This document shows positions 13,001 to 35,290 of a DNA stretch of 64,000 nt, piece by piece. A model generated the notes under the pieces. That model ran no database searches, was not told the origin of the DNA, and worked only from the letters and a program-made list of their open reading frames with translations. A program made the translations under genes and the position numbers. The DNA is from a virus: the IMG/VR virus record IMGVR_UViG_3300038620_000126, positions 32,001 through 96,000 of that record; one strand, given 5' to 3'. Position 1 is the stretch's first letter. Each line of letters starts with the position of its first letter.

Positions 13001-14365
13001 TTAAACTATTACTCTACCTTCAACATCAGAAACAGCTTTAACATCTTCTTTTGTGAAATCTTTTTTATTTTCATCACAAATAAAATCACCCCCAACTTTT
13101 TCAGGAGCACCTTCAAGGGATGTTAAATTATTACCAAAACAATCAAAATCACCCCCAACTTTTTCAGGGGCACCTTTAAGAGATGTTAGACTATTACCAA
13201 GACAATTAAATTCACCCCCAACCTTTTTAGGTGCATCTTCAAGGGATGCTAAATTGTTATGGGAACAATCAAAATCACCCCCAACTTCTTCAGGTGCACC
13301 TTCAAGTGTTGTTAATTTATTACCAGAACAATCAAAATTACCACTAATATATTTAAGCCTGTAATTGTTTATAATTTTTTTATAATTTTTAGGGTTGAAC
13401 TTTAAATTTACATTACCTTTAATGTTAACTATATTTCCATCTATTTCAAATGTCCCATCAACAACATAATTTAATGTTTCTTTTGGGCTTGAAGAGAAGC
13501 TATTTATATCATAAGATTTAAATTTATCAATAACATCTTTCTTAAAAAATACGGCTTGTTCAGGTTCATTGGGATGAATAAACCAGTCTTCACCTTTATC
13601 AATAAAACCTTCAATATCCAAGTCCAAGTAAATTTTTGTTTTAAATTGTATACTTTTATCTTCTCGTAAAGCTAAATCAACATAGTTATTTACAAAAAAC
13701 CAAAGTGTTTCAACCGTTGGTTGATAATTTTTAGTATTACGCATTATAGTATGACTTAATTCATTCCATTTTGCTGAATATTTTCTGGAATATGTTAAAC
13801 TATTTAAATTAGTTTTCATTTTTTTAAAACTTTCTTTTCTTTCTGATTTATTATTTGATTTCATAGCTTTTATATAGTTAAACAATAAATCGAAAGCATC
13901 TTGTGGAAGATTATTTTTTAATTTCTTGTTAGACTTACAAATTTTGTAGAACTTTTCAATATGTTTAAGAACTTCAGAATCATGAGTTAAAATTTTACCT
14001 TTTTGAATTTTGTTTTCTTTAATTTTAAATAAGTGAATTACATTAGACATATTAGGAATAAAAGGATAAAATCGTTCTAATCTTTCTTTAATTTTTTCAT
14101 TAGGAGTACTATTTGTAAAACCTGCTGTTATCCTATTATAATCTTCTTTGTTAAAAGGGTAAGCATAATATCCAGCGGGTGTATTATAACCAGTAAAAGG
14201 ATTTATAAATGTTACAGTATTTTTCCGTCGAAATGAAATAAACCAATTATCTAAACTGTCATTTCCAATAGTATTTTTAATAAATTCAACAATGTTTATA
14301 TCTCTATTGACTTCAGGGTTTCTTCGCTTTTCCGTTAAGTAATTTTGAAAAGACTTTAAACGCAT
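13001..14365 (-). CDS. Capsid-tagged protein: putative ART-like domain + 22-aa leucine-rich repeats
   Basis: N-term MRLKSFQNYLTE; TPAGYYAYP and EGFID..IHPNEPEQAVFF; four FDCxxNxLTSLEGAPEKVGG repeats. Confidence 0.7.
   Translation of the reverse strand: MRLKSFQNYLTEKRRNPEVNRDINIVEFIKNTIGNDSLDNWFISFRRKNTVTFINPFTGYNTPAGYYAYPFNKEDYNRITAGFTNSTPNEKIKERLERFYPFIPNMSNVIHLFKIKENKIQKGKILTHDSEVLKHIEKFYKICKSNKKLKNNLPQDAFDLLFNYIKAMKSNNKSERKESFKKMKTNLNSLTYSRKYSAKWNELSHTIMRNTKNYQPTVETLWFFVNNYVDLALREDKSIQFKTKIYLDLDIEGFIDKGEDWFIHPNEPEQAVFFKKDVIDKFKSYDINSFSSSPKETLNYVVDGTFEIDGNIVNIKGNVNLKFNPKNYKKIINNYRLKYISGNFDCSGNKLTTLEGAPEEVGGDFDCSHNNLASLEDAPKKVGGEFNCLGNSLTSLKGAPEKVGGDFDCFGNNLTSLEGAPEKVGGDFICDENKKDFTKEDVKAVSDVEGRVIV
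13080..13340 (-). repeat. 66-bp tandem coding repeats (LRR units, about 4 copies)
   Basis: aaaatcacccccaactttttcagg(a/g)gcacctt... recurs at 66-nt spacing. Confidence 0.9.
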
Positions 14366-14664: not shown

Positions 14665-16326
14665 TTAAGTGTCAATAAATCCACTAACATCTATAACATT
14701 TTTAATTTCTTCTACTGTAAATTCTTTTTTATTATCCATGATCATAAAACCACGGACCTTTTCGGGTGCGCCTTTAAGAGATGTTAAGTTATTATGAGAA
14801 CAATCAAACACCTTTTCAACTTCTTTGGGGGCACCTTCAAGAGATGTTAATTGATTATTAGAACAATCAAAACCTTTTCTGATATAATTAGGAGCACCTT
14901 CAAGTGTTTTTAATTTATTATCAGAACAATTATAGTCACCTCCAAAGTTAAATCCTTTTTGCTCAAATCCAACTTCCTTCGGCCCCCCCTTTAAACTTGT
15001 TAATTTATTATCAGAACATACAAAATTTCCAATAATTTTTTGGGGACAACTTTCTAAAGATTTTAGTTTATTATTAGTACAGTCAAGATCACCACCTATT
15101 TCATTTGGTAAACCTTTTAATGTTTTTAGATCATTAGATTTACATTTTACATTTGTCTTTACAGTTGAAATGCCTTCTAATGTTTTGAGTTCGTTTAAGT
15201 TACATACAAATTCACCATCAACTTTTTTGGGGCATCCTTCTAAAGATTTTAATTTATTATTAGAGCAGTCAAATTTTCTTCCTACATATTCAGGAATTCC
15301 AATTCTTAGAAGAGATGTAATACCGATTGCTTTACAAATAAAACTTCCAGTAACATTACCAAATTTATACTTTTCTGTAATTCTATAAAAATCTGCTTTA
15401 CTATTAAAAAATACATCTCCATCAACATTAATTACATTGTTTTCTTTTATTTCATATCTTCCACGTATTACTTTATTAAGTAAGTTGTTTATGTTACCCA
15501 CAAAATCTATTATGTCGTAGGAATAAAGATTTTCAATAACATCTCTAGTAAAAAATATAGCCTGTTCGGGTTCATTGGGATGAATAAACCAGTCTTCACC
15601 TCTATCAATAAAACCTTCAATACCTAAATCCAAATAAATTTTTGTTTTAAGCTGCGCTCCACCAGTTTTCACTAAGTCAACATAATTATTTATAAAAAAC
15701 CAAAGCATTGAAACCTTTTTCTGTTTTTTAATAACAAGTTTTAACTTACTCCACATTTGATCCATTTCATAATCATTTGGTTTTATATTTTCAATTAATT
15801 CACTGACTTTATTATAGTCTTTTTCTTGATTCACAACAACTTCTAACAAGTCAAAAGCAGCCTGCGGAAGGTTATCTTTTAATATTTTCTTTGTTTTACA
15901 AATTTTATAGAATTCTTTAATATGTTTAAAAGCTTTTGAATTTCTTGTTAATATTTTTCCACTTTTAACTTTTTCTTGTTTGATCTTGAATAGATGAATT
16001 ATGTTAGAACCCCTTGGAAAAAATGGGTAAATATCTTTTATTTTAGTTTTAACTGAACTGTTATCGCTACTTTCATCATATTTACTTAGTAATTCATTAT
16101 AGTCTTCTTTATTAAATGGATATGCATAATATCCAGCAGGAGTATTATATTCGGTAAAAGGGTTTACAAATGTTACAGTATCTTTTTGTCGAAATGAAAT
16201 AAACCAATTATCCAAACTATCATTTCCAATAGTATTTTTAATAAACTCAATTATGTTTATATCTCTATTAACTTCAGGGTTTCTTCGTTTTTCTGTTAAG
16301 TATTCATAAAAATTTAATAACTTCAT
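14665..16326 (-). CDS. Capsid-tagged ART-like + LRR protein, paralog of 13001-14365 with about 9 repeats
   Basis: MKLLNFYEYLTEKRRNPE; near-identical first ~75 aa to paralog; IHPNEPEQAIFF; longer LRR array. Confidence 0.7.
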   Translation of the reverse strand: MKLLNFYEYLTEKRRNPEVNRDINIIEFIKNTIGNDSLDNWFISFRQKDTVTFVNPFTEYNTPAGYYAYPFNKEDYNELLSKYDESSDNSSVKTKIKDIYPFFPRGSNIIHLFKIKQEKVKSGKILTRNSKAFKHIKEFYKICKTKKILKDNLPQAAFDLLEVVVNQEKDYNKVSELIENIKPNDYEMDQMWSKLKLVIKKQKKVSMLWFFINNYVDLVKTGGAQLKTKIYLDLGIEGFIDRGEDWFIHPNEPEQAIFFTRDVIENLYSYDIIDFVGNINNLLNKVIRGRYEIKENNVINVDGDVFFNSKADFYRITEKYKFGNVTGSFICKAIGITSLLRIGIPEYVGRKFDCSNNKLKSLEGCPKKVDGEFVCNLNELKTLEGISTVKTNVKCKSNDLKTLKGLPNEIGGDLDCTNNKLKSLESCPQKIIGNFVCSDNKLTSLKGGPKEVGFEQKGFNFGGDYNCSDNKLKTLEGAPNYIRKGFDCSNNQLTSLEGAPKEVEKVFDCSHNNLTSLKGAPEKVRGFMIMDNKKEFTVEEIKNVIDVSGFIDT

Positions 16327-16370: not shown

Positions 16371-17930
16371 TTAGTTGTTAGTCATTTTCCACTTAATTTT
16401 ATCAGTACTATAAATTTTTTCATATCCCATTTTTTTCATGATTTCAGATTCTGTATTATTACTTACAAAACTTTGATCTAGCTTAAATTTTTGTTGTATT
16501 CTTTTTTTAGAAAATGCAGATTTATGAATACGTTTATCACTTTTATAATATGAATAATCTGGTTTAGTTTCATACACTTTTTGAAAACCTAACTTTTGAT
16601 ACATATCTCCTGTAAACATTGAACTATCAGAAAAACTAATAATTTTTTCTGGATTATAATTTTTAACAAAATAATTAAATAGCTTACTAGAACCACCAAT
16701 AACATTTGTGTTAAGAATCGTAGCATATCGAGTAAGTTCCCAAACATCTTCTTTGTTTTTTGATGTTGATATATTTCTAGTTCTTTTGCTAAAACTCATA
16801 CAAGCTACCAGTCTTGTTTTATAATAAAGACCAAAATTTAATTCATAAAAAGAATTTAAACCTTGAATGTGATTTAATTTATAAAACTTTTTGATTTCTT
16901 TTGGATTGACTTTTAACACACTACATTTTCTAGCATATACTTTATTTTCGGTTTTACCAATTGCATTTTTTATAAGCGACTTTACTATATCTGTTTTGTA
17001 TTGCCAGTCATCTTCCCATACATGTATTAACCTGTATCCAGCTTTTTTGCAAAGATCTGTTTTTCTTTTATGGTAATATTTGTCATTTAAAAACTTATGT
17101 GAATGATAGTATAATCCATTGAATTCAATTGCTAATTTATAATTTGGTATTACAATATCAAGTTCATAAGGACTGATAAGTTTTTTATCATTAAAAAGTA
17201 ATTCATTATAATTTATTAAAGAAGTAATATAATTTTTTAGTTGCATTTCGCCCTTAGAAGTATATCTTTGACGTTTGTTATAACAAAGTGGAACACCATC
17301 ATTTAACAACTTATTAACTTGATTTTTATTAATAGAAAATTGATTCTGTGTGCAACTACAATCATGACACTTTAATGTAATAGAGTTGGATTCATTTTTT
17401 AAAATTTTATAATTATCTTTTAATTTTTCATAATTATTTTTTACCCATTCACTTAACACTTTTTCTTTTATATACTTTGATTGAGATGGTACTTTTGTGC
17501 CATATTTTTTAAGATTTGTGTTTTCTCTTTTTGCTTTAATTTCTTCAATTTGGTTGGGATTCTTAACTCCATACTTTTTAAGCAGTGTGTTTTCTTTAGA
17601 TTCTTTAACCGAATTGTCTTGAGAAATATTAGTAACATTATAACGATTTTGATTTGTTGCTTCTCTTTTTTTGTTTGTTATATTCTTTCCTTTTTTACGG
17701 CAATCTGAACTGCAAAATTCAGCAAATTTCTTTTTTTCGTTTATCCACTTTGTTTTTAATCCACACCATTTACATGTTGGTAAAGACTTTAATCCGTTTT
17801 TATACAAATAAAACTTTTGTGAAGTTGTTAAATCTTCAGATTTTTCTACATCACTAAAGTAATCTTTTGTATTATCTTCAAAGTATTGTCTATGCTTTTT
17901 ATATCTAAAATCCAGATTATCCATTTTCAT
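16371..17930 (-). CDS. Free-standing homing-endonuclease-like protein (Zn finger, KKYGV repeats, Vsr/PD-(D/E)XK nuclease, GNAT-like C-terminus)
   Basis: CKWC...FCSSDC; KKYGVKNPNQ repeats; ELDIVIP.YKLAIEFNGLYYHS; IHVWEDDW; ELTRYA..GGSSKLF. Confidence 0.75.
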   Translation of the reverse strand: MKMDNLDFRYKKHRQYFEDNTKDYFSDVEKSEDLTTSQKFYLYKNGLKSLPTCKWCGLKTKWINEKKKFAEFCSSDCRKKGKNITNKKREATNQNRYNVTNISQDNSVKESKENTLLKKYGVKNPNQIEEIKAKRENTNLKKYGTKVPSQSKYIKEKVLSEWVKNNYEKLKDNYKILKNESNSITLKCHDCSCTQNQFSINKNQVNKLLNDGVPLCYNKRQRYTSKGEMQLKNYITSLINYNELLFNDKKLISPYELDIVIPNYKLAIEFNGLYYHSHKFLNDKYYHKRKTDLCKKAGYRLIHVWEDDWQYKTDIVKSLIKNAIGKTENKVYARKCSVLKVNPKEIKKFYKLNHIQGLNSFYELNFGLYYKTRLVACMSFSKRTRNISTSKNKEDVWELTRYATILNTNVIGGSSKLFNYFVKNYNPEKIISFSDSSMFTGDMYQKLGFQKVYETKPDYSYYKSDKRIHKSAFSKKRIQQKFKLDQSFVSNNTESEIMKKMGYEKIYSTDKIKWKMTNN

Positions 17931-18672: not shown

Positions 18673-18826
18673 ATTTTCATATGTTTTTGTATTTATTTAA
18701 CCTTTGACGTTAAAGATAATAAAAAGAAAAGTATTTTACAAAAGTTTAAAAATAAAAAACCCGTTCAACGATAAAGCTGAACGGGTTTTTAAGTTTAGTG
18801 ATGGTTAGATTAAAGGAAATCAACAC
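18673..18826. repeat. 154-bp direct repeat, copy 2 (native MCP 3' end)
   Basis: Matches 17923-18076. Confidence 0.92.
18754..18790 (-). terminator. Intrinsic terminator of major capsid gene
   Basis: aaaaacccgttca...tgaacgggttttt. Confidence 0.85.
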
Positions 18827-20630
18827 CACCAGCATCAGATGTTACGTCGAACGTAAGATAAGAAGTTTCTGGATACTTACCTGCCTCCGTGATAGCAGCG
18901 CGAGACTTAACTGCAATCTTTGGAGCCATAGTACCTTCAGCAATAGTGCTAATCGATTCTGCCATAAGGTATGGCATAAACTTAATTCCAGGTTCTTCAT
19001 CGCTTCCCTTACGCATAACGCAAACGCGAGAATCATTCCACTGCATGTTAGCATCACTATAAACAGTAACACCGAATACAGTACCATGAGGACTTACACT
19101 TGAGTTAGCTTGATCAAATGTATTTTGGAAGCTTGATGGCATGTAACCAGCAACATCTACCATACTCTGAGTTAAACGTCCACTCATAACAGCGCAATTA
19201 CCAGGTCCAATACGGTTGCGGTGATGCAAGAAACTTGCAACAGCACCAATGGTTCTTGGAATTCTCCGTTGAATGGTTTCTTGGTTTTCATACAAGGTTG
19301 TGGTACCAGTGAAACCCAAAGCGTTTGCAGGTTGACCTGCACTAGTTGGGAACGTTGCTAGTGTATTATCTTTACCCGGGTAGGTTGAATAAACACCATT
19401 ATTACCAATGTGTAAGTTGAAGTCCGATCCTTCAGTTTTGTAACTGTTAATATGGTTAGTCCAACCTAGTGCCATTGCGCGTCCAATCAGTGCTTTACTA
19501 AAGCTTTGAGTAAGCTCATTAACACAAGCACTTTCAGACATACCAACAGCATCAATACCCCAAATGGATTGATAGTCTTGGATTTGTTCAGTCTTCAATG
19601 GTAAAGCAATTTGGAAAGTTTCTGCTTCTACCAAACGGCTGAACATTTCCATGCCCAGTTCGCGATAATAGGTATTTTCACCAGTTTCGCGACTCATTGG
19701 GGAAGCATATGGACCTGCGTTAGCACCACTTGCATTACTGTTTGTGTATTGGCCAGCTTCAAAACCTTCAAAGTTAAGAGTAAAATCATCATTGTCTTGA
19801 GAACCAGCACCACTAAATCCGGGAATGTGGTTAGTAAGTGCAGTTGCCAGTTCTGCTCTAACGCCACCAAGCGCATTACTATCAGCAACAACACTACCAC
19901 CACTAGTCGGATCAAACAACCGATAACTTGTAGTGGTTCCCGTAAATACATCACTAATAGCCAAATTACCTGCGTTATTAGTGTATTGCACACGGAAAAT
20001 TGGATCAGGAGTAATACGATGCTTACCTAAGAAAGTCAAGGTCATAACTGTTTGGTTACTACCACTGCTTTCTTGAACTTCGTATTGCCGACCTTTAACC
20101 AAGCTATCAATAGTGCTTTGAGAAAGGTTATTGACAGCAATAACATAAGGAGCATTTTGTTTGCCCTGACCACGAATTTGACCACCAGCATAATTGTACT
20201 CTAGATAAGGCAACATAATTGCAGGCTTATCCATAGGGATAACAGGGAAAAGATCAAAAGCTGGTGTTTCAGCAGCAACCTGAATTGATACAGGAAGGGC
20301 AGCAGGGAAAACATCACCAGACCCCGTGTTACCACGATAAAACACATTTTGTGTAGAACCTTGTGGACCTGCAATTGAATTACCAGCACCATATTGTGCG
20401 GGGTTTGAAGGAGCTTGAACAGCACCAATACCATTAACATTACCCAAGGAAGCAGAAGTTTGACCAGCTTCGTTCAAAGGACCCATTGCACGTTTTGCAT
20501 GGTTATGGCAATATTGGTACAGCCACTGCCTACGGGATTCAGATAGTTGACTAGTATCAATGTTCATACTTTGCAACACTGGATCCCATGTTTCTTTTAG
20601 TTTTTGACTACTGAAGTCTTTAATAAACAT
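18810..20630 (-). CDS. gp23: Major capsid protein (T4 gp23-like)
   Basis: LKETWDPVL N-arm, LNE cleavage site, FPVIPMDKP, GIKFMPYL..TMAPKIAVKSR; follows prohead protease. Confidence 0.93.
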   Translation of the reverse strand: MFIKDFSSQKLKETWDPVLQSMNIDTSQLSESRRQWLYQYCHNHAKRAMGPLNEAGQTSASLGNVNGIGAVQAPSNPAQYGAGNSIAGPQGSTQNVFYRGNTGSGDVFPAALPVSIQVAAETPAFDLFPVIPMDKPAIMLPYLEYNYAGGQIRGQGKQNAPYVIAVNNLSQSTIDSLVKGRQYEVQESSGSNQTVMTLTFLGKHRITPDPIFRVQYTNNAGNLAISDVFTGTTTSYRLFDPTSGGSVVADSNALGGVRAELATALTNHIPGFSGAGSQDNDDFTLNFEGFEAGQYTNSNASGANAGPYASPMSRETGENTYYRELGMEMFSRLVEAETFQIALPLKTEQIQDYQSIWGIDAVGMSESACVNELTQSFSKALIGRAMALGWTNHINSYKTEGSDFNLHIGNNGVYSTYPGKDNTLATFPTSAGQPANALGFTGTTTLYENQETIQRRIPRTIGAVASFLHHRNRIGPGNCAVMSGRLTQSMVDVAGYMPSSFQNTFDQANSSVSPHGTVFGVTVYSDANMQWNDSRVCVMRKGSDEEPGIKFMPYLMAESISTIAEGTMAPKIAVKSRAAITEAGKYPETSYLTFDVTSDAGGVDFL

Positions 20631-20675
20631 AATTTTAGTTTTTTTTATTTTTTGTTTTTTTGCGTTTTTTTGTTT

Positions 20676-22982
20676 TTAACGCGAACGGTACTTTAGATTT
20701 TCTTTTAATAGTTTGAGACCATCTTCATATCCCAATTCATTAGTGCTTTGCTCTTGTGCACTTTCATAAATACCGTTGTTACGACTTAGTCCTTGAAAGT
20801 TTTGCGATGATTTTGATTTTGTATCATTCACAATTGAATTAGACTTCCAGAACTTGTTAATTTTGTTTTGAGAATCGAAATTCCAAATTTTTGCCTGATT
20901 GTGAATTTGATTACGTTCACTCTCAGATAAGTTGTTCCAAACATTTACATATTGCTTGGGCATATTTTTTATGTAGCTTGGGGCATTTTGATCGCTTTCA
21001 TAAACCCTTCTACAAACTTCATAAATTTGATTTGGGTGATAAACTTGATTCTTAGCAATCTCATCTGAAACAATTTGCTTTTGTGCACTGGACAATCCAT
21101 AGAAAAACTGTTTCTGATTTTCTGAAAGCATTCTAACAAATGGATATAGTTCATCAACTGATTCTGAATAATGCCTTGAATAAGTTTGATTTGCTGCTTC
21201 TAATGCATTATCTACAGTTTCATCAATACTTTCAATTTCAATTGAATCACCCAATTGATAGTGTTCCGTAATACCAGATTCATTCAGTGATTCTGCTATT
21301 GTTTCCGTATAATTAATGCTACTTTCAACACTAGGTTGTATTACATCTTCCATGTAACTTCCAATTGCTTCAATATTTTCTTTTAGTTTATCTGAATAAT
21401 TAATGCTACCTTCTAGGTATGGCTTAATTTCATCTTGTGTATAATCAATCAAATCATTAGTTCTTTCTGCAATGAATTCTGAATAATCTCTATTGCCTTG
21501 AATATTTTCACGAAGTTCTTCAGTATAATCAACAATGTGGTTTACATGTTCTGCAATGTTTTCGCTATAATTAATAGCACTTTCAACATTGGGGCGAAGT
21601 TCACCGTCCATATATTCACGGTTGTTGTGTATACCTTCTCTTAATTCGTTTTGGGTATAATCAATAAGTTGATTGGTTGTTTGACCAATAGCTTCGGTAT
21701 AACTAACTAGTTTATTGAATTTATTTTCAAGTGTATCAAAAGCATTTTTTATCTGCTTCGAATAGGCATTAATTTCATTTTTCAACTCTTTTATAGAGTT
21801 GTCATTTTCGAAAGTGTTGTTTTCTGCATAACCTGCAACACTATCAATTTTATTTTCAATATCTTCAAACGCTTCATTAATTTTTCTACTATGTTCTTCC
21901 AAATAGTTTGAAATTTGTTCAATTTTGCGTTGTTGATATGAATTTTCTGGAACTTTAGAACGTAGGTTTTTAATTTCTTTTTCTACATTTCTAAAATTTT
22001 TGTTGTGGGCTTCTGCGAGCCTGTCAACTTTTTGCTTTAATTTGTTTGTGGTTTTTTCAGTTTCGTAACCCATTTCTTTTAGTTTATTTTTTGTTTTATT
22101 TATTTCATTTGTTTTATTTATTTCATAATTTAAATTTTCTTCTTCAGATTCATATTCTTCATCTTCAAAGTTTTCTGATTCAAAGTTTATACGATCTATC
22201 ATTCTTTGAACCCTATTAACTTGTGATTCATTTAATGTATAGATAATTTGATTTCCATAGTCAGAATCCAAACCAAAATCTTCATTTATAATGGTAAGGT
22301 CATCTGCATCATTTACAACACCCAATCTTGGTTCATAGTCAAAGCTTGAATAAAGTGAACTATAGTTTTTATTGTTCTTTTCAGCAAGTCTTTGAAGTTG
22401 ATTATCAAGTGTTTTATAATATTCTCTATATTTTTGGCGGAGTTCTTCTCCCTCTTGAACTTGAGAAAGTTGAGCGCCCGAAAAACCGGGAACTGATACT
22501 AAATCATACGTAAAAATCTTTTTAATTTTTACTTTTTTATCATTTCCAACTTGACCTGCTGCTCTCGATGATATGTATAGCGGAACACCAGCATCAACTA
22601 AGTTTCTAGCCTGCTCCCCGTATATAGTGGGGAGTAAGCGAATTCTACCTTCAATTGTATTATTTTTCTTATTATACCAAACATTTTCAACTTTATGAGA
22701 TGCATTTTGAAGTGAAATATCAAAACCTTCTGGGTGATCCATTTCACCCAACAAAGCATTCTTTTTAGCCCTTTCTTGAAGTTGCCCTAACTGGTTTAAG
22801 TATTCCTGTTTTTCATAAATTCGATTATTATCGTTTTCTTTATCAAGTTCTGCAAAAGTACCTTCTAAAATGTAGTCTTTTGTCTTTTTATTTTCATTGT
22901 TACCTTCATTTACAAGCTCAATGTTAGAACTACTTTTTTCCAGTAAAAAAATCCATTGGTTATCATTTGTCTTATTAGACAT
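20676..22982 (-). CDS. gp21: Prohead protease (gp21-like) fused to long scaffold/core domain
   Basis: NDNNRIY, LLGEMDHP, ISSRAAG, TYDLVSVPGF; C-terminal repeated NxLIDYTxxE helices with many L/I-x-E sites. Confidence 0.9.
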   Translation of the reverse strand: MSNKTNDNQWIFLLEKSSSNIELVNEGNNENKKTKDYILEGTFAELDKENDNNRIYEKQEYLNQLGQLQERAKKNALLGEMDHPEGFDISLQNASHKVENVWYNKKNNTIEGRIRLLPTIYGEQARNLVDAGVPLYISSRAAGQVGNDKKVKIKKIFTYDLVSVPGFSGAQLSQVQEGEELRQKYREYYKTLDNQLQRLAEKNNKNYSSLYSSFDYEPRLGVVNDADDLTIINEDFGLDSDYGNQIIYTLNESQVNRVQRMIDRINFESENFEDEEYESEEENLNYEINKTNEINKTKNKLKEMGYETEKTTNKLKQKVDRLAEAHNKNFRNVEKEIKNLRSKVPENSYQQRKIEQISNYLEEHSRKINEAFEDIENKIDSVAGYAENNTFENDNSIKELKNEINAYSKQIKNAFDTLENKFNKLVSYTEAIGQTTNQLIDYTQNELREGIHNNREYMDGELRPNVESAINYSENIAEHVNHIVDYTEELRENIQGNRDYSEFIAERTNDLIDYTQDEIKPYLEGSINYSDKLKENIEAIGSYMEDVIQPSVESSINYTETIAESLNESGITEHYQLGDSIEIESIDETVDNALEAANQTYSRHYSESVDELYPFVRMLSENQKQFFYGLSSAQKQIVSDEIAKNQVYHPNQIYEVCRRVYESDQNAPSYIKNMPKQYVNVWNNLSESERNQIHNQAKIWNFDSQNKINKFWKSNSIVNDTKSKSSQNFQGLSRNNGIYESAQEQSTNELGYEDGLKLLKENLKYRSR

Positions 22983-23017
22983 AGTTTTATTTTTTCTTTA
23001 TTTATTTATTATAAAAT

Positions 23018-23041
23018 AAAAAAGCGGCTTTGTAGCCGCTT
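23018..23041 (-). terminator. Intrinsic terminator
   Basis: aagcggct-ttgt-agccgctt with adjacent A run. Confidence 0.75.
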
Positions 23042-23080
23042 AGAATTTGACTTTTAGTAAGTATTTCATTAAAGTGTTAA

Positions 23081-23479
23081 TTAATCATCATCTTCTTCAC
23101 CCAAACCATATCTATCCTCTAACTCTTCCGCTGCTCCTTCTATTCCATAACTATCTTTCATTTCAGCCGTTTCAATAACATGTTTCATAACTTTTTCTTT
23201 TAATGAACCACCATCTTTATCTTCTGCAGCATCTAACAGTGCCATTAAGTCATTTTCAAATTCTAAATCAAATTCATCTGCTGCATCTTTCATAGCATAT
23301 TCAAGTGCATCATCTTTTACATTGTCTGCCACTGCGTCTGCTATATCATCAATATCAAATTCGGAAAATGCTCTGTTAGAACTTAAATTAAATTCAAGTT
23401 CTTCATTTATCTTCTTTTTATTTTTTGAAATTTTATTTTCTTTGATAAATTCATTAAATGTAGGTAGTTTACTTCTCAT
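23081..23479 (-). CDS. Capsid-tagged highly acidic internal protein
   Basis: MRSKLPTFNEFIKEN...INEE then D/E-rich body. Confidence 0.8.
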   Translation of the reverse strand: MRSKLPTFNEFIKENKISKNKKKINEELEFNLSSNRAFSEFDIDDIADAVADNVKDDALEYAMKDAADEFDLEFENDLMALLDAAEDKDGGSLKEKVMKHVIETAEMKDSYGIEGAAEELEDRYGLGEEDDD

Positions 23480-23538
23480 AATTATTGTTTTTGTTATTTA
23501 TTTAATAAAAAAAAATCCCACTTCAAAAGTGGGATTTT
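23445..23538 (-). repeat. 94-bp cassette header copy A (terminator + late promoter + codons for MRSKLPTFNEFI)
   Basis: Two mismatches versus 24260-24353. Confidence 0.93.
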
Positions 23539-23580
23539 ATAAAATGTTTAATTTATTTTTGTAGTTTAGTAAAAACTTAA

Positions 23581-24294
23581 CTACAGTATAGTTTCCATCA
23601 TATTCTTAACATCTTTTTTGTTTTTAACAGGTTTATTGTAACCTGTAATTGCTTTAATATACTGTATAGAGTGTTTGTTATCAGGATCCAGTAAATCTTC
23701 AAGTCCAGGATCGCCCATTTTATATCTATTGTACAATTTACTTGAAAAATACATAAACGCATCACCAACTGCATTTTTTACTTTTGCTCTTATGGTGTTT
23801 ACTTTATCTTTTATAATGTTATCTACATCGGGTTCATTTTTTATTAATTTACTACTTACCTTTTTAACTGCATCATTAAGTGCAATAATAACTTCAGTTG
23901 CAACTCGTTTCTTAGCAAAGTCTTGAATAATACTTTCAACTTTATCTTCATTATCACCAAAAATTTCAGGCTTTGTTTTTTTATGCCGTTTTGCAATACT
24001 CTCAAAGAGATCGTTAAAAAAATCTATTGTTACTTTTTCAGTAAAGCTTTTAATAAGGTCATTCAATTTTTCAACTTTGTCTTCAGATCCACTTCTTTTA
24101 ATTCTAGTTACTTCATCTTTATAAACTGATAATAAAGATACGTCACCAGAATCAAGTGACTGTAACATATGCTTTGGTGCATGTTTTAGTAATGGATGAT
24201 TAACTGCATCTTGTATAACATCTGGCATATCACTTTTAGCCATGTTTTGATTTTCAGTAATAAATTCATTAAATGTAGGTAGTTTACTTCTCAT
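23581..24294 (-). CDS. Capsid-tagged helical internal protein
   Basis: MRSKLPTFNEFITEN; body unrelated to neighbour. Confidence 0.8.
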   Translation of the reverse strand: MRSKLPTFNEFITENQNMAKSDMPDVIQDAVNHPLLKHAPKHMLQSLDSGDVSLLSVYKDEVTRIKRSGSEDKVEKLNDLIKSFTEKVTIDFFNDLFESIAKRHKKTKPEIFGDNEDKVESIIQDFAKKRVATEVIIALNDAVKKVSSKLIKNEPDVDNIIKDKVNTIRAKVKNAVGDAFMYFSSKLYNRYKMGDPGLEDLLDPDNKHSIQYIKAITGYNKPVKNKKDVKNMMETIL

Positions 24295-24353
24295 AATTAT
24301 TGTTTTTGTTATTTATTTAATTAAAAAAAATCCCACTTCAAAAGTGGGACTTT
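24260..24353 (-). repeat. 94-bp cassette header copy B
   Basis: Matches 23445-23538 at 815-bp offset. Confidence 0.93.
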
Positions 24354-24356
24354 AAA

Positions 24357-25019
24357 TTATGGATTTAACCGTTTTCCGATTTCAATAGCAGAACGTTTTT
24401 CTGACATTGAAAGTCCACTGATAGTTATTAGCCTTTCGTTAGGAATAATGGATTCGAATATAAAAGGACGGTTATTTACTGTAGAATGCATTTTTCCATC
24501 TTTACCGAATTTTGGGTAACCTACTTCTTTAATAACGCCCTTTTTACCTCTACCCGGATAACCATCTCGACACTCATTAGTGCTAATTAGGTAATATTTA
24601 CCTCCAGCGTCAGCAAAAGCTACAGAATCTTGTTTAAAGTATTCACCCAGTTTTGTTAAGGTATCTAGTAAATCTCCCGTATTTTCCTTATCAACTACAA
24701 AAAAGGATTCTTCTAATTCTTCTGGTTTTTCGTCCTTTTTTGGAGGATAATTTTTATAAAAAAGTCCTTTAATTGGCGTAACACCATAGTTCAAATACAA
24801 TAGCCTTTGTTTTAGTGTTGAATTGCGGATTTTATTTTCTTCTTTTGTATAGGGATCTCCACTTTGACAATCATCAGTTTCACGAAACGCGGTTATAACA
24901 CCGGTATCGTGATTTTTATAGTGTGTCCACAACCTAGATAATCCTGATTCGTTAATCTGATCAGATTTGCTAATTTTCTTTGCCATTGTAACGCTGTTTT
25001 TTTGATTCAATCGACTCAA
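24357..25019 (-). CDS. SAM lyase (T3 SAMase)-like protein; true start possibly ATG at 24986
   Basis: ITAFR..ENKIRN..L..G-x-F..EESF..LG..FKQDSV parallels T3 SAMase VSAFR..N..R..GCY..EE..EQDCV; INE/S processing site. Confidence 0.55.
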   Translation of the reverse strand: MSRLNQKNSVTMAKKISKSDQINESGLSRLWTHYKNHDTGVITAFRETDDCQSGDPYTKEENKIRNSTLKQRLLYLNYGVTPIKGLFYKNYPPKKDEKPEELEESFFVVDKENTGDLLDTLTKLGEYFKQDSVAFADAGGKYYLISTNECRDGYPGRGKKGVIKEVGYPKFGKDGKMHSTVNNRPFIFESIIPNERLITISGLSMSEKRSAIEIGKRLNP

Positions 25020-25100
25020 CTGTTAAACATTGTTAAGATCAAACAAGTTCCATGAACTATCCAAGATTGATGAGTTTATGCTTCATTTTATAAAAACAGT

Positions 25101-25682
25101 TCAATTAACACCAAGAACTTTTTTGATATCCTTAACAATTTTTTTAACTTTTTTGGGAACCTCTATTTTAATTTTGTCAACATCTAATTCACGTTCTACC
25201 TTTGCTGCTGTGTTTGTGTATAAAGTTTTCATTGTTTTAATATTTTTGTTAAGTTTACTGGAATTCACTGCTTCTGATGCTTCATCAGGATCAACAACAT
25301 TAATAAAAACTTCATAAACGTTTTCATTTTTATGATAAATAACTTCACTATAAAGAGCTGCTTTCTTTTTTTCAATTTTATCTAAAAACTCTTTTACTTT
25401 ATCACCTTTAGATGATTCATCAATTAACTTTTTCGTTGATTTTTGAGAAAGAATTCCAACATAGCTGTATGCATGTTTGTTTCGCTCAAGTCTTAAATTT
25501 TCTTTTTCAACAGTTTTAATTTTGTATTGTTCTTCATAAATATTTATAATACTTCTCATAATTAATGAAGCAAATTCTTCTGTAGGTGCTTTCATATTTG
25601 TAAGCACGCTATCATAAAGACCTTCTTTAACATTTTTATTTTCTTTAATAAATTGACTAAATGTAGGTAGTTTGTTTTTCAA
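25101..25682 (-). CDS. Capsid-tagged basic internal protein
   Basis: MKNKLPTFSQFIKEN; late promoter; TTG start. Confidence 0.78.
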   Translation of the reverse strand: MKNKLPTFSQFIKENKNVKEGLYDSVLTNMKAPTEEFASLIMRSIINIYEEQYKIKTVEKENLRLERNKHAYSYVGILSQKSTKKLIDESSKGDKVKEFLDKIEKKKAALYSEVIYHKNENVYEVFINVVDPDEASEAVNSSKLNKNIKTMKTLYTNTAAKVERELDVDKIKIEVPKKVKKIVKDIKKVLGVN

Positions 25683-25694
25683 AGCTGTTTTTTT

Positions 25695-26216
25695 TTATTT
25701 ATTTACTAGGAAAAATTCTACTGCATTTTTATAGTCTTTAGGAACAGAATTTTCAATTGTATCATGTATCCATTCCGATGCAAGCCATGTTAAAATTACT
25801 ATTTTTACTTCAGATTTAGTTAGTTCTTCAAATTTCATTTTTCCCTTTTCAGTTTTAAAAGTTTGATTATAATCTATTATTTCATTTTTTATGTAAATGT
25901 AAAAATCTTTAATTTTATTTCTACTAACTTCATATTTTTTATCAACTCTTTTTCGCATTATATCGTCTATTTCACTAAACATGTAGTCAAACGCCTCGCT
26001 GGGTTTTGGTAACTTTGAATCTTTTTTGTAGGTTTTTCCGTGTTTTGTTCGCTGCTTTTCTTTCATATGTTCTATATCATCAATAACAATAGAAGCGGTT
26101 TCTCTTAATCCACGTTTTATAAATCTTTTACTTTTATTTGTAATGTTAAAGGGGTTATCGTCGTATTCAAACGCTTCAAATAAAAATTCAGAAAAAGTTG
26201 GAATAAAGCTTGACAT
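25695..26216 (-). CDS. Capsid-tagged internal protein
   Basis: MSSFIPTFSEFLFEA; late promoter. Confidence 0.78.
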   Translation of the reverse strand: MSSFIPTFSEFLFEAFEYDDNPFNITNKSKRFIKRGLRETASIVIDDIEHMKEKQRTKHGKTYKKDSKLPKPSEAFDYMFSEIDDIMRKRVDKKYEVSRNKIKDFYIYIKNEIIDYNQTFKTEKGKMKFEELTKSEVKIVILTWLASEWIHDTIENSVPKDYKNAVEFFLVNK

Positions 26217-26243
26217 TCCTAGTTTTTCTTATTTATTTAGAAC

Positions 26244-26837
26244 GTGAAACCAAAGCACATCGGTTTCTGTTCTTACAGTAGGAGGTTAAACATTAAACTT
26301 AGAAAAAAAATGAAAGACAACGTAAAAAAGTTCCAAAAAAAATCCGAAGCTCTAGATTTTATTGTTGGGGACAATTCCCTTTTCACAATTAAAAACATAA
26401 AAACGGGGAATCGCTTAACTTATAGGGTTAAGCGCCCCAAAAAAATTATTGATCAGAATAAAGAGCTTTACTTTGTTGAAGTTCTTAATTCTGAAAATTC
26501 GTATGAATATATTGGTTGCATGCAACTAAATCAAACCAATAATTTGTACTTTTTCAAACTAACAAAAAAGAGTCCTCGGCCATTAGATGATGCGGGTGTA
26601 AAGCCTATTCAGTGGCTTATAAAATACCTTCAAACAGACGGTAATGAACTTCACCCGTCATTGGAAATTTGGCACCACGGAATGTGTGGTAAATGTGGAC
26701 GGGAACTAACCGTTCCCGAATCCATAAAAGTAGGATTTGGACCACATTGCTATAAACTTGTTAAACCACAAGTTGAAGCAGAACTTAAATCTAAGCTCAA
26801 AAATTTGAGTAAAGAGCAAATAGAAACATTGCAATAA
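26244..26837 (+). CDS. DUF6011-like zinc-finger protein
   Basis: CGKCGRELTVPESIKVGFGPHC. Confidence 0.75.
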   Translation: MKPKHIGFCSYSRRLNIKLRKKMKDNVKKFQKKSEALDFIVGDNSLFTIKNIKTGNRLTYRVKRPKKIIDQNKELYFVEVLNSENSYEYIGCMQLNQTNNLYFFKLTKKSPRPLDDAGVKPIQWLIKYLQTDGNELHPSLEIWHHGMCGKCGRELTVPESIKVGFGPHCYKLVKPQVEAELKSKLKNLSKEQIETLQ

Positions 26838-28742
26838 TCAATTTCCCATCTTTCCAAAAAGCCCACCGTTTTCGCGAACATAGTTTCCAATCTTTTCTAT
26901 TTCGCCTCGGTGGGTTCTTTTATATTGCTCAGAAGTTTCTGCACCTTCAATTATACCATTGTGAATGGATTCAATATAATTTGAAGGTGTTTGACTGTAA
27001 TCCCGCTTTTCAATTCCATCGCCCCTGTCTTCAAATTCACCACGACTGGGGTTTGCTTGTTCACCAGCAAATTTTTCACTTGGTAATGTTCTATAAAGTT
27101 TACCAGTTCCTCGGTTAAACATAGATTGAATTTCGGCGCCATCTCGTGGTCTTCCATGTGCAAGTTCAACTTGTACACTCATTGATGTTGGAAAATCTTC
27201 AGCCCCCAAATCATCTGAAAATTGAAATATAGCCTGTTCACAAATTAAGTTACCAATCATCATAATTGGATTCATTGGATTTCCAACAACTAAATGCCAA
27301 TTACCAACTGGATTACCAGATATTAGTGATGGTAAAATAATAGCGTCTGGACGAGACTTTGCACTTTCCATATCAAGAAACATTTTAAGCCCACCACCAA
27401 TCATGCTTTTAATTTTATTCATGGTTTCTTTGGGGTCTGAAGACGGATCAAACATTGCTTGAAGATCCGTTTGTATAGAATCCGCAATATTTGAAACATC
27501 AGAACTTAAGGTTCTAAAGTATTCTTGATAATCACCAGCATAAAAACTTGACCAATCACCAAGAAATGGAACTTGTGGAACATCAGGAAAAAATCTTACA
27601 TCACCACCCCACCAAGGTGCATAATCATAACACAAAGCCAACATATTAGCAAGAACATCAAGCATTCCAACTTTTGGACTGATATTACCTCCTGCTGTAA
27701 GATCAAATTGAAAATTAATTTTTAAATTTTGTTGTTCAAATTCAAGACCTTTTTGCCGCTTTTTTGTGTTTTTAATAACATTTACGGGGCCATAAACAGC
27801 ATTAGGATGGGTTTTTTCGTATGCATCTTTACCATAAATTTGTTGAGCCTTTTTTGATCTTTGTGCAAGATCGCCCGAACCAGATGCTTGTCCAGAATAA
27901 AATGCAGTAACAGTTCTCAATGCACCTGAATTCGAAACAGAACCTGGCAGATCCGAAAAACCCGGAATTTTACCATCCTCTTCCCATACGTCTGATTCAA
28001 TATCCTCCCAATTGTACTTAGTTGAAAATTGCATTATTTCACTCAACTTATTTTCAGTCTCTTCACCAAAATAAGTTACAGCTTTTGCAACAGGAGGCAT
28101 ATATTTAACACCTTGAATTTCTGCATTTTTGTTAGTTACTGTAACAGGGCCTAAAGCATCTGTTGTTGGGTAAAGAAATCTTCTTAGTGTTATTAATCGG
28201 TTGTTTGGTATTTCGCCAAAATATCTTGCATAAACAAAATCTTTAGGTTGATAAGCAAATATTGGCCCAACCTTATCACCAAGATTATCAGAGCTAAAAT
28301 AGTTTAATATATTTTTTAGTGTTGGTTCAACATATTCTGGTTTTTGTATATCATTACCAGCTTCTTCTGAAGTATTATTGGGGTTTAGAAAGAAGTCATT
28401 AATTGAATGATAAGCATTTTTATCTTTTGCAAGACTAAAAATAGCAAAGTTGTTCATCATTGCTTTGCCACCCTTTACAACTACTCTGCCTTTTGCACCA
28501 GAACCCGAAACTTGATTCTTTACATCATCAAGACTATTAATTTGAATTATTTTATAAACTTCACTTGAACCGTATTGTTCATATGCTCCCTCGAACACTT
28601 CTTCGGGTATAATTCGTGGATTGACTTCATTTTGAAGGTCTTCATAACTATCAACATTTAATGCATCCCCATTAACACCCGGAAATACTACAGGCTCAAA
28701 CGAACTATTGCTTTCTCGTGCTTGGCTAAGTGATCCCTGCAT
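26838..28742 (-). CDS. Conserved virion structural protein (baseplate hub/tube-initiator-like)
   Basis: Late promoter; IPNNRLITLRRF, WHLVVGNPMNPIMMIGNLIC, FPTSMSVQVEL tube-like strand. Confidence 0.55.
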   Translation of the reverse strand: MQGSLSQARESNSSFEPVVFPGVNGDALNVDSYEDLQNEVNPRIIPEEVFEGAYEQYGSSEVYKIIQINSLDDVKNQVSGSGAKGRVVVKGGKAMMNNFAIFSLAKDKNAYHSINDFFLNPNNTSEEAGNDIQKPEYVEPTLKNILNYFSSDNLGDKVGPIFAYQPKDFVYARYFGEIPNNRLITLRRFLYPTTDALGPVTVTNKNAEIQGVKYMPPVAKAVTYFGEETENKLSEIMQFSTKYNWEDIESDVWEEDGKIPGFSDLPGSVSNSGALRTVTAFYSGQASGSGDLAQRSKKAQQIYGKDAYEKTHPNAVYGPVNVIKNTKKRQKGLEFEQQNLKINFQFDLTAGGNISPKVGMLDVLANMLALCYDYAPWWGGDVRFFPDVPQVPFLGDWSSFYAGDYQEYFRTLSSDVSNIADSIQTDLQAMFDPSSDPKETMNKIKSMIGGGLKMFLDMESAKSRPDAIILPSLISGNPVGNWHLVVGNPMNPIMMIGNLICEQAIFQFSDDLGAEDFPTSMSVQVELAHGRPRDGAEIQSMFNRGTGKLYRTLPSEKFAGEQANPSRGEFEDRGDGIEKRDYSQTPSNYIESIHNGIIEGAETSEQYKRTHRGEIEKIGNYVRENGGLFGKMGN

Positions 28743-28778
28743 TTAACTTTTTTATATTTATTCTAATAACAAAAACAA

Positions 28779-29231
28779 TTAATTTTTTTCTACATTATCA
28801 TTTAAGCTTGTTTCTACATTTTTTAATTTCTTTTTCATTTTTTCAGGAAACATTTCTAATTCTTCATTTACCACTTTAAGGGGGATTTCTCGCTTCTTTG
28901 CATAATATAATTTTATCTCGTATGAAGGTTCCCAATCACTTTTTTCTTTTTCTGATTTTACGGTTTTTGATTTTGCAAATATAAATTTAGGGGTTCTTTT
29001 AAATTTTCTTTTTAGGGTAAAGAACCATGCAAGTGTAGCTTTATCTGGCTTAACATGTTTATTGTTTAATGCATTAGATTGAAGGGGATAACCCTTAGCC
29101 AAAAATCGATTTAACATAAACCAATTTTTTGATAACTCACTAAAAGACTTATTTTGAAAATTTTTAGGATTTTCAAAAAAATCTTTAATGTAAGCCATTA
29201 AATCATCGGACTTTTGATTTTGTTTTGCCAT
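28779..29231 (-). CDS. Putative clamp-loader small subunit (gp62-like)
   Basis: FMLNRFLA..ALN..KFIFAK pattern. Confidence 0.45.
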   Translation of the reverse strand: MAKQNQKSDDLMAYIKDFFENPKNFQNKSFSELSKNWFMLNRFLAKGYPLQSNALNNKHVKPDKATLAWFFTLKRKFKRTPKFIFAKSKTVKSEKEKSDWEPSYEIKLYYAKKREIPLKVVNEELEMFPEKMKKKLKNVETSLNDNVEKN

Positions 29232-29243
29232 AGTTTTTATATA

Positions 29244-29831
29244 TTAAATGTGCAATGTCATGTCTTTAGGAGCTGGTATTTTTCCCCCAAAATAAGGATA
29301 CAGGTCGTAAGTCAGTAACTTGTCATACCAACTTACAGGAAAATCCAATTCTTCATAGGATTCAAAATCATTAATATCATTAATATTGAATAATGGTTTG
29401 TTTATTCTAATTTTATATACTTTGAATCGAACTTTTTTTACTTCTGTATTAACTTCTATAACAAAGTTGTAAAGTTCATTAACATTGATACTAGTTAAAT
29501 ATTTATGAATAAAACTGTTACTTAATTCTTTGTTGTAGTAATAAGCAAATATATCTATTTTGTTGCCATTAGGTCGCCATCCGAATCTAAGAGATTTGTA
29601 GTGATGATGAATAAAAGCTACACCAAAAACTTTGTTTATTTGTGTTAACAAATATTGTTTTTCTTTATTCGAAAAATCAGATAGCACTTTATCACTTATT
29701 AAACAGTTTTCATCAAATCTAACAATTTTATGGTATATGAAATTATTCTTAAAACTGTCAAGTAAAATTTTAAAGTTTATTTTAGATGAATTTGATCTAT
29801 GGGTGTGTTCTTTTATAATATGTTTTGACAT
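29244..29831 (-). CDS. Hypothetical protein (beta-sandwich-like; LYPYFGG..PAP)
   Basis: 195-aa ORF. Confidence 0.7.
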   Translation of the reverse strand: MSKHIIKEHTHRSNSSKINFKILLDSFKNNFIYHKIVRFDENCLISDKVLSDFSNKEKQYLLTQINKVFGVAFIHHHYKSLRFGWRPNGNKIDIFAYYYNKELSNSFIHKYLTSINVNELYNFVIEVNTEVKKVRFKVYKIRINKPLFNINDINDFESYEELDFPVSWYDKLLTYDLYPYFGGKIPAPKDMTLHI

Positions 29832-30412
29832 GATTGTTTTAGTGTTTCTGGTCTTTGTTTCAAAAAAGAATACAAGTTACTTAGCTTTTTAGAGACGGTG
29901 CTCTTATCTAAATGAAGTTTTTGAGATATTTCAGTTATCGTATAATCGTTTTCAAACATTAAAGATAAAATATATGTAGAATTTTCTATATCAAATTTGG
30001 ATCCCAAAAGTAATAATGTTAACTTTTCTTTGAATTCATTGTAATAATAACTTTCTTCATCTGTTAAATGGTTTTCAAACTCGTTCATTTCAAGTAAAGC
30101 GCAGTAAACTGATGCGCTTTTATGTTTCAATACTTTTCTCTTTGTACAGACAATAGCCCAGTTAATAAAATTCAACTTTTTCCAGTAATTAATAACATTG
30201 TGAAGATTTCCCATAAATTCTAAATAAGCATCACTTGTATCTTCAGTATTAAAGTTGTAATCTTTACAAATCTTATTTACAACCAAGTTTTTGTTATTAT
30301 GTGGACTTCCTAGTGCATAATATAATTTGTTAAAGTTTTTATCAGTTTTTTCAAGTTTATAATTTTCAGCTAATTCATTAATATATTGAATTTTTTCTGT
30401 TTTTTTACTCAT
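29813..30412 (-). CDS. Sigma-factor-like protein with C-terminal HTH
   Basis: Region-2-like helices (DAYLEF..FINWAI) and YTITEISQKLHLDKSTVSKKL HTH. Confidence 0.6.
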   Translation of the reverse strand: MSKKTEKIQYINELAENYKLEKTDKNFNKLYYALGSPHNNKNLVVNKICKDYNFNTEDTSDAYLEFMGNLHNVINYWKKLNFINWAIVCTKRKVLKHKSASVYCALLEMNEFENHLTDEESYYYNEFKEKLTLLLLGSKFDIENSTYILSLMFENDYTITEISQKLHLDKSTVSKKLSNLYSFLKQRPETLKQSCQNIL

Positions 30413-34777: not shown

Positions 34778-35269
34778 TTATATCATTTTATCAATTTGCT
34801 TGTAAAGACTTGGAAATCTTTTATTTATATCAACCAAAAGAGAACGGTTTAAAGTATTAGAAAATATAGAATCTAAAAACTTAAGTAACTTTTTTTCTTT
34901 AGTAGATTCACTTTTAGTGTTTATTATAGTAGCTGCTTTTTTATATAAATTTTCACTTTTTCTTCCATCTGGAAGCTCACCATTCATAAATCCATTTACA
35001 AACTCATGAAATCCCATATAATCTAACTCATGAAAAAGAACACGAAGTGCTATAATAGAATATTCATCTAAAGAATTTTTTTGTAAAGCATCAACAACAT
35101 GTGTTACTTTTTTATACCTATTATCTATGTTTGGCTTGTGAAGTATAGTATTGTAATATTTTACTATTTTGTCAACAATATTATTAGATTTAATTTTACT
35201 GTTATTTTCATTAATTCCACTTTGACTTTCATTAACAAATTGATTAAATGTGGGTAGTTTGCTTTTCAT
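34778..35269 (-). CDS. Capsid-tagged internal protein
   Basis: MKSKLPTFNQFVNES..INEN; header similar to 23445/24260 repeat. Confidence 0.78.
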   Translation of the reverse strand: MKSKLPTFNQFVNESQSGINENNSKIKSNNIVDKIVKYYNTILHKPNIDNRYKKVTHVVDALQKNSLDEYSIIALRVLFHELDYMGFHEFVNGFMNGELPDGRKSENLYKKAATIINTKSESTKEKKLLKFLDSIFSNTLNRSLLVDINKRFPSLYKQIDKMI

Positions 35270-35290
35270 AATCGTTGTTTTTTTTATTTA

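Follow-up and report, generated by a model that had tools for sequence, protein, structure and literature searches.

A DNA header with a putative, T4-like capsid tag recurs ahead of unrelated genes beside the prohead protease gene of an uncultured phage

In a 64,000-nt stretch of phage DNA (below, the window; positions 32001-96000 of the 110,246-bp IMG/VR virus record IMGVR_UViG_3300038620_000126, here G0, with 30% G+C and an estimated CheckV completeness of about 41%), two neighbouring minus-strand genes share an almost identical header and then continue into proteins that have nothing in common. The locus raises the question of what this header is: the trace of a gene duplication, an expression signal maintained by selection, or a module that directs proteins to the phage head and can be exchanged between genes. 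We favour the last alternative, with a probability of about 0.7. The region would then be a cargo locus of the internal-protein type in a giant phage whose head is of the T4 type, and it would be composed of cassettes whose tag is of the capsid targeting sequence (CTS) type, with the header also mediating exchange. For the part concerning the tag and the protease, our confidence is higher than for this combined reading.

A repeat search revealed a 116-nt direct repeat whose two copies, 815 nt apart and 92% identical, precede the candidate cargo genes c1 and c2 (Table 1) and are the best two copies of a four-member direct-repeat family. With two mismatches allowed, the longest stretch comprises 95 nt (23445-23539 and 24260-24354), and both mismatches are present in it. 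On the minus strand, the header starts with a hairpin of 12 pairs and a T-run (H1), followed by the motif AATAAATA, an A-rich leader lacking a Shine-Dalgarno sequence, and the ATG with the codons for MRSKLPTFNEFI. The H1 hairpins have predicted folding energies of -14.6 and -15.2 kcal/mol (z-scores of -3.3 and -3.6), their activity as terminators being a prediction from sequence; together with a third hairpin situated after c1, they head the list of 10 terminator-like sites in the region 20000-30000. We also observed more diverged copies at 25634-25673 (92.5% identity over 40 nt) and 35237-35292 (87.5% over 56 nt), standing before the genes c3 and c4, and a fifth, even more diverged, ahead of position 26216, that is, before c5. 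Thus, the near-identical pair, the order of its elements and the existence of diverged versions are all as had been claimed in the preliminary description of the locus. An assembly artefact was considered as a source of the pair and rejected: there are two base differences between the copies, each copy has flanks of its own, and a read would usually be longer than the repeat.

The adjacency of c1 and c2, their same orientation and common 5' ends would be consistent with a tandem gene duplication, after which the bodies diverged beyond recognition. However, the identity of 98% over 95 nt stops at codons 12-17, falling to the background level within approximately 15 nt past codon 12, and the proteins differ in length (132 and 237 amino acids, respectively). 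When the tags were removed, BLASTP comparison of c1 and c2 yielded nothing at E <= 10, and in an hhalign comparison the profile of the c1 family could be aligned only with residues 1-16 of c2. As both comparisons failed outside the tag, a simple duplication is excluded, and we regard even one followed by extreme divergence as scarcely credible; the bodies are indeed unrelated, as proposed earlier, and not homologous.

The same holds for a broader set of genes. A degenerate DNA pattern of the class-1 tag (see below) matched only two further IMG/VR contigs, G1 (60.9 kb; also denoted L009) and G2 (81.7 kb), both from one common sample, and the 32 tagged bodies of G0, G1 and G2 include no more than two homologous families. 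A metagenome scan with this pattern gave nine matches, all of them by chance, as none of the nine was at an ORF (open reading frame) start or behind the promoter-like motif. The c1 body has an internally duplicated homologue in G1, with the identity of 54-57% at the amino-acid and 67% at the nucleotide level, which was the only copy found in IMG/VR with the c1-family profile; the nucleotide identity of the headers between G0 and G1 is 86-97%, compared to 67% for this orthologous body. Moreover, ten of the twelve class-1 copies use CTA as the Leu codon of the tag, a codon that constitutes 11% of Leu codons in the genome. A rare codon common to so many tags indicates common ancestry of the DNA rather than convergence of the peptides.

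The peptide itself resembles a well-studied signal. The T4 CTS is MKTYQEFIAE (PMC8442874); its residues 4 and 7 matter in targeting, whereas processing involves residues 8 and 10, and the gp21 protease cleaves after L/I-x-Glu (PMC9026906). Replacement of Glu by Asp at position 10 of the T4 CTS blocks the cut. The tags of the window read T-F-N-E-F-I-x-E, having the same residues in the same register, and the general pattern, aromatic-x-x-aromatic-[I/L/V]-x-Glu, has at its end the motif that gp21-type proteases cut. The CTS pattern (aromatic residues at 4 and 7, I/L at 8, Glu at 10) is present in c1-c5 and in about seven further ORFs, and FGSFLTE, the predicted gp21 cleavage site of T4 gp23, shares the tag pattern. 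Both a protease of the gp21 family (Peptidase_S77) and a capsid protein of the Gp23 family are encoded in the same genome as the tags.

The tags are strongly concentrated at protein N-termini. In all six frames of the 110-kb record, we observed 15 matches to the strict pattern, 12 of which (about 11 of them credible) are at the N-terminus of a long ORF. With a looser pattern applied to the called ORFs, 12 matches start within the first 15 residues and 12 elsewhere, which amounts to a 20-fold excess (p = 2e-12). The N-terminal enrichment ratio is 33 in G1, 12 in G2 and 23 in a distant relative, L089 (IMGVR_UViG_3300010167_000012; 218 kb, 28% G+C). Behind the same motif and leader, G1 has 11 N-terminal tags and G2 has six, while in the 110-kb record the tagged ORFs number about 12 and are dispersed.

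The lack of a Shine-Dalgarno sequence and the A-rich leader, together with the fact that the nearest cultured phages infect Bacteroidota, could also be explained if the leader and the first codons together acted as a module for translation initiation or expression in a host that does not use Shine-Dalgarno sequences, the peptide having no role in targeting. The tags, however, form two sub-classes, KLPTF(N/S)(E/Q)F(I/V)xE and (L/I)KSFxxY(L/I)TE, the latter exemplified by MRLKSFQNYLTE. The second sub-class uses different codons, and hence it is the peptide pattern itself that is kept. As this pattern also fits the T4 CTS, the cut motif of the protease and the scaffold repeats described below, a purely expressional role of the tag seems very improbable.

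Several further tag-like segments were seen in the window. Two tagged paralogues, 13001-14365 and 14665-16326 (minus strand), are 51% identical, share the sequence ...TEKRRNPE after the tag and give a weak leucine-rich-repeat signal; their homologues are present in both G1 and G2. The segment 48487-48570 (plus strand) encodes MKLKSFENYITEKRKKPDKNI, a second-class tag, with a stop approximately 22 codons after it, and is probably the remnant of a lost cargo gene. In the ORF 47834-48475 (plus strand; 213 amino acids), a tag-like ILTFFEFLNE lies five residues ahead of the stop. It may be a C-terminal propeptide similar to that reported for T4 Alt.

On the minus strand, the genes are arranged in the order c5, c3, a gene of the S-adenosylmethionine (SAM) lyase family, c2, c1, the ORF of the protease fused to a scaffold domain, and the Gp23-family major capsid gene. 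The stop of c1 is at 23081 and the start of the Peptidase_S77 ORF at 22982, so the array does abut the prohead protease gene. In relatives of the clade, the protease is likewise fused to a scaffold, which consists of about 13 tandem units of 14 residues, each containing YSEYLAE (such fusions are L024:7927-9961, L062, L093, L070 and L085). The scaffold in the window is less regular and holds DYSEFIAE, INYSENIAE and INYTETIAE; T4 gp22 has no aromatic repeats. Judging from these sequences, the cargo tag appears to be one unit of the scaffold repeat, cut site included. This suggests that the cargo may join the core via the contacts that hold the scaffold repeats together and may be released by the same cut.

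The equivalence of the tag and the scaffold unit would also be consistent with a different role of the tagged proteins, as they could be parts of the prohead core or of its assembly machinery, similar to T4 gp67 and gp68, which are degraded and expelled rather than injected. Indeed, the array occupies the T4 gp67/gp68 position beside the protease gene, and c1 is very acidic, like T4 gp67. On the other hand, the bodies are diverse, mostly lack homologues and vary among relatives, as fits accessory genes; of the five KLPTF-type bodies, four are basic, as are T4 IPII and IPIII, and among the four such bodies of the array this applies to three; and in a relative the tag is found on an enzyme of the PolyA_pol/CCA-adding family. 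Thus, we consider it quite unlikely that the tagged proteins are in general core components.

The header was proposed to be a plug-in module; if so, different cargo should follow it in relatives, and in the genomes considered here this is the case. Across G0 and G1, no fewer than four unrelated bodies are preceded by the header sub-family MRSKLPTF... with the leader ...caataatt, and related composites of the hairpin and AATAAATA are present in both G1 and G2. Two G1 cassettes have a common header (93% identity) and a common 84-nt trailer (87%) around unrelated bodies. Adjacent pairs of near-identical headers before unrelated bodies recur as well: in addition to the G0 pair (98% over 95 nt), there are two in G1 (93% and 92%) and one in L089 (98% over 42 nt). 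The c1 copy of G1 adjoins ribonucleotide reductase and terminase genes rather than the protease gene, retaining both the header and the trailer hairpin. Hence, the gene order is not fixed across these contigs: the cargo varies, and the shared c1 stands in another genomic context.

In L089, the protease-scaffold gene is directly preceded upstream by 13 consecutive small ORFs with tag-like N-termini (L089:691-7822; for example, MKQRILTFEQFITE), seven of them conforming to the strict motif, whereas most members of the clade have none at this slot. One tagged ORF of G1 (L009:9550-10743, starting with MKIKSFYEFVNE...) belongs to the PolyA_pol/CCA-adding-enzyme family (PF01743, 2.4e-33) and, by its family assignment, may be a packaged tRNA-repair enzyme.

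The recurrence of the header could in principle be due to purifying selection on the promoter, leader and propeptide combined with gene conversion; in that case the header would move no genes, and the array would have been built by ordinary insertions and divergence. The leader and tag, being 86-97% identical between genomes, are clearly constrained, and AATAAATA is a general signal of the phage. Yet the identity between c1 and c2 extends to the stem and loop of the hairpin and to the spacer, where the exact sequence should matter little. The c1 cassette with its header and trailer in another genomic context, the G1 cassettes with both ends in common around unrelated bodies, and the rare CTA codon, which indicates copying of DNA rather than convergence, also argue against selection as the only force. 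We therefore hold this explanation to be unlikely, while taking the constraint itself as real.

The promoter was the part of the proposed module that stood only partially. The motif AATAAATA does belong to the header, but it is not specific to it. It occurs 37 times in the window, compared to 22 +/- 4.8 in shuffled sequences, and lies 7-24 nt upstream of 42 of the 112 ORFs. It is found 10-18 nt upstream of 11 of the 14 ORFs tagged by the regular expression (11 of about 12 credible ones), and also ahead of 31 untagged ORFs, including the protease-scaffold gene and the largest ORFs. As it precedes so many untagged ORFs, the motif is a general promoter-like signal of the phage rather than an element private to the header. 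That it is "late" is presumed from where it lies and from its resemblance to TATAAATA, the late motif of T4. A scan with the sigma-70 consensus produced 46 sites against 46.2 expected, showing no excess; in place of the strong sigma-70-like early promoter that is typical of promoter early stem-loop (PeSL) elements, the header has AATAAATA.

Two occurrences of AATAAATA were also observed at 22071-22122 (minus strand), inside the ORF 20676-22982 and 23 nt ahead of an in-frame ATG (Met304, at 22073). By analogy with herpesvirus UL26/UL26.5, where a nested scaffold-only product is formed, this pair may give rise to a scaffold-only product of 465 amino acids.

According to the reading that we favour, each cargo gene is a self-contained unit comprising the predicted terminator of the preceding gene, the promoter-like motif AATAAATA, a short A-rich leader and an N-terminal propeptide of 12-17 residues. 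The propeptide would bind the scaffold core, so that the protein becomes enclosed in the prohead; the gp21-type protease would then cut after Glu, and the mature protein, thus released, would stay in the head and probably enter the host with the DNA. Since the header is conserved as DNA, it could also act as portable homology. If a small circle carrying a header and the c2 body recombined with a resident header by one crossover, the arrangement header-c2-header-c1 would result; in the opposite reaction, c2 would be lost in the form of an 815-bp circle. As alternatives to the insertion of a circle, unequal crossing-over and short-tract gene conversion are conceivable, and for this specific recombination history the odds seem to us only slightly better than even.

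Several points weigh against the interpretation of the region as a cargo locus with an exchangeable header. Selection on the promoter, leader and peptide together with gene conversion could keep the headers identical without any mobility, and certain tagged proteins could belong to the core or the scaffold instead of being delivered as cargo. One array gene, that of the SAM lyase family, has neither a tag nor AATAAATA. A search of the G0 record, about 41% complete, with T4 gp55 gave no match. In the collections searched, we found no close relative with the same protease-proximal slot, the nearest capsid proteins being approximately 40% identical, and hence no direct presence/absence polymorphism at the slot was observed. 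Finally, the phage is uncultured, and the timing of expression, packaging, cleavage, injection and recombination are deduced from sequence. Taken together, the plug-in module of the preliminary description retains its anatomy, which can be read directly from the DNA, the T4-CTS-like tag, the unrelated bodies and the varying cargo of relatives, but loses the promoter private to the header and the array that is tagged throughout, the SAM-lyase-family gene within it being untagged.

A bolder version may be formulated as well. The tag would literally be one 14-residue scaffold repeat, so that the cargo co-assembles with the scaffold and is released by the scaffold cut, and the header would be an integron-like capture site that functions without an integrase, small circles with a header entering and leaving at resident headers. 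We put this forward tentatively and think it more doubtful than probable; if true, it would mean clade-wide plug-and-play loading of injected proteins, with Bacteroidota as the likely hosts.

The internal proteins of T4 (IPI, IPII and IPIII) and their capsid targeting sequence are said to have been described by Mullaney and Black in 1996. The tagged proteins of the window resemble them in that a short N-terminal leader is attached to otherwise unrelated small proteins, the residue pattern is similar (TYQEFIAE in T4, TFNEFIxE here), the leader ends at an L/I-x-Glu site of the phage's own gp21-family protease, and the genes are non-core and variable. The differences are that no body in the window is homologous to a known internal protein (no Pfam or PHROG match), that the leader has 12-17 residues rather than 10, that the approximately 12 tagged ORFs are dispersed over 110 kb, with the main array directly upstream of the protease-scaffold gene, and that the phage belongs to a distant uncultured giant-phage clade, for which the packaging of the cargo is a prediction.

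The internal proteins of T-even phages are a diverse set with the CTS alone in common (PMC3012670, PMC12373910), and T4 Ip1-3 act against GmrSD-type enzymes as specific inhibitors of host defence (PMC12373910). PeSL-like elements at the polymorphic T-even internal-protein loci were noted by Arbiol et al. (2010), citing Repoila 1994 (PMC2839356), and may explain the plasticity of these loci (PMC2839356; also PMC4122927). The T-even loci are thus similar to the one considered here in combining unrelated cargo that has a common leader with flanking promoter and stem-loop elements, proposed to shuffle cargo between related phages (PMC2839356, PMC4122927, PMC12373910). As this model has already been published for T-even phages (PMC2839356, citing Repoila 1994), the concept of a header cassette is not new, contrary to what had been supposed for this locus. 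The elements themselves differ: those of T-even phages consist of T4 early promoters and weak AT-rich stem-loops (Arbiol 2010, PMC2839356), while here a late-like AATAAATA is combined with a hairpin having the shape of a good intrinsic terminator.

The header is also comparable to PeSL cassettes of RB49/phi1 and other T4-like phages (Arbiol 2010; Comeau 2014), where a composite terminator-plus-promoter repeat flanks small accessory ORFs. In both cases, as far as can be predicted, a terminator-like stem-loop and a promoter-like motif are joined in one repeated intergenic element, and direct repeats a few hundred bp apart could yield deletions or mini-circles. Unlike PeSL elements, the window header has no sigma-70-type promoter, and the repeat runs into coding sequence, that is, into the tag codons. 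Another parallel is provided by the phiKZ-like giant phages phiKZ, 201phi2-1 and SPN3US (PMC9026906), in which a gp21-related protease cleaves many proteins of the head interior after Glu. Their sites, however, are S/A-x-E with few other determinants, their propeptides are long and varied, and a DNA header common to their genes has not been described.

What sets this locus apart is the lineage, the type of the promoter, a repeat that spans from the terminator into the coding sequence, an array adjacent to the protease gene, and the number and spread of the tagged ORFs. The logic of an address tag, with a near-identical peptide, extends to a very distant uncultured lineage of giant phages. About 12 proteins without homologues become candidate packaged factors of anti-defence or host take-over. 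The header-cargo-header footprint and the likeness of the tag and the scaffold lead to testable ideas on how cargo is recruited and cargo sets are exchanged, and with the short tag as a query, packaged proteins could be sought in the phage genomes of metagenomes.

As to the lineage, capsid proteins about 40% identical to that of the window are encoded at more than 576 IMG/VR loci, many of them on contigs of 200-430 kb; with the window capsid protein as a single query, no close relative was found in IMG/VR. The nearest named phages by the capsid protein, at 26-29% identity, are Lak megaphages, Sphingomonas phage PAU, and phages of Tenacibaculum, Flavobacterium and Chryseobacterium, the value for Lak, PAU and the Tenacibaculum phages being about 28%; in the capsid region of Flavobacterium phage MaF61, the gene order differs from that of the window. 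The phage represents a deep-branching, uncultured clade of giant phages with a T4-type head, probably infecting Bacteroidota. A search for the protease in G1 and G2 gave no match, both contigs being 23-31% fragments without the head module.

Among the cargo genes (Table 1), c1, c2, c3, c5 and c4 have no Pfam or PHROG family. No homologue of c2 was found among 5.8 billion proteins, and the ESM Atlas contained no useful neighbour, the Atlas model of c2 having a predicted local distance difference test (pLDDT) score of 0.54.

Table 1. Positions of the header elements, cargo genes and head genes in the window
Feature	Coordinates	Strand	Evidence
Header copy 1, ahead of cargo c1	23431..23546	-	Repeat search, alignment
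Header copy 2, ahead of cargo c2	24246..24361	-	2 mismatches to copy 1 across the 95-nt core
Terminator-like hairpin H1, 12 pairs and T-run; predicted to close the c2 transcript, opens header copy 1	23512..23538	-	
Terminator-like hairpin H1, second copy, after the SAM-lyase-family gene	24327..24353	-	
AATAAATA late-promoter-like motif, 15 nt ahead of the c1 ATG	23495..23502	-	
AATAAATA late-promoter-like motif, 15 nt ahead of the c2 ATG	24310..24317	-	
Trailer hairpin H2 after c1; same hairpin after two G1 cassettes	23022..23041	-	
Candidate cargo c1, 132 amino acids, tag MRSKLPTFNEFIKE, acidic body (isoelectric point 4.1), homologue in G1	23081..23479	-	
Candidate cargo c2, 237 amino acids, tag MRSKLPTFNEFITE, between the two header copies, homologue not found	23581..24294	-	
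Untagged gene of the S-adenosylmethionine lyase family in the array	24357..24986	-	PF23780, 1.4e-9, above cut-off
Candidate cargo c3, 193 amino acids, TTG start, tag MKNKLPTFSQFIKE, diverged header	25101..25682	-	
Candidate cargo c5, 173 amino acids, tag MSSFIPTFSEFLFE, most diverged header of the array	25695..26216	-	
Dispersed candidate cargo c4, 163 amino acids, tag MKSKLPTFNQFVNE, diverged header	34778..35269	-	
gp21-type prohead protease (residues 15-207) fused to a repeat-built scaffold domain, 768 amino acids	20676..22982	-	Peptidase_S77 PF03420, 5.3e-9; phrog_207, 4e-38
Gp23-family major capsid protein	18810..20630	-	PF07068, 3.6e-12

The N-terminus of the SAM-lyase-family protein holds Q-I-N-E, a possible protease site. 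SAM lyase of phage T3 is an anti-restriction enzyme, and the presence of a gene of this family at the locus fits an anti-defence theme.

Some neighbouring genes may be mentioned as well. Directly downstream of the capsid gene there is a large homing/HNH endonuclease gene (16371-17930, minus strand; phrog_3339, 1e-108), a position comparable to that of T4 segD beside gene 23. In G1, the terminase-like ORF L009:4512-5111 contains ...SSRQMGKC followed by an intein-like continuation. The sole plus-strand gene between the array and the ORF of 634 amino acids encodes a DUF6011 protein (26244-26837; PF19474, phrog_20259).

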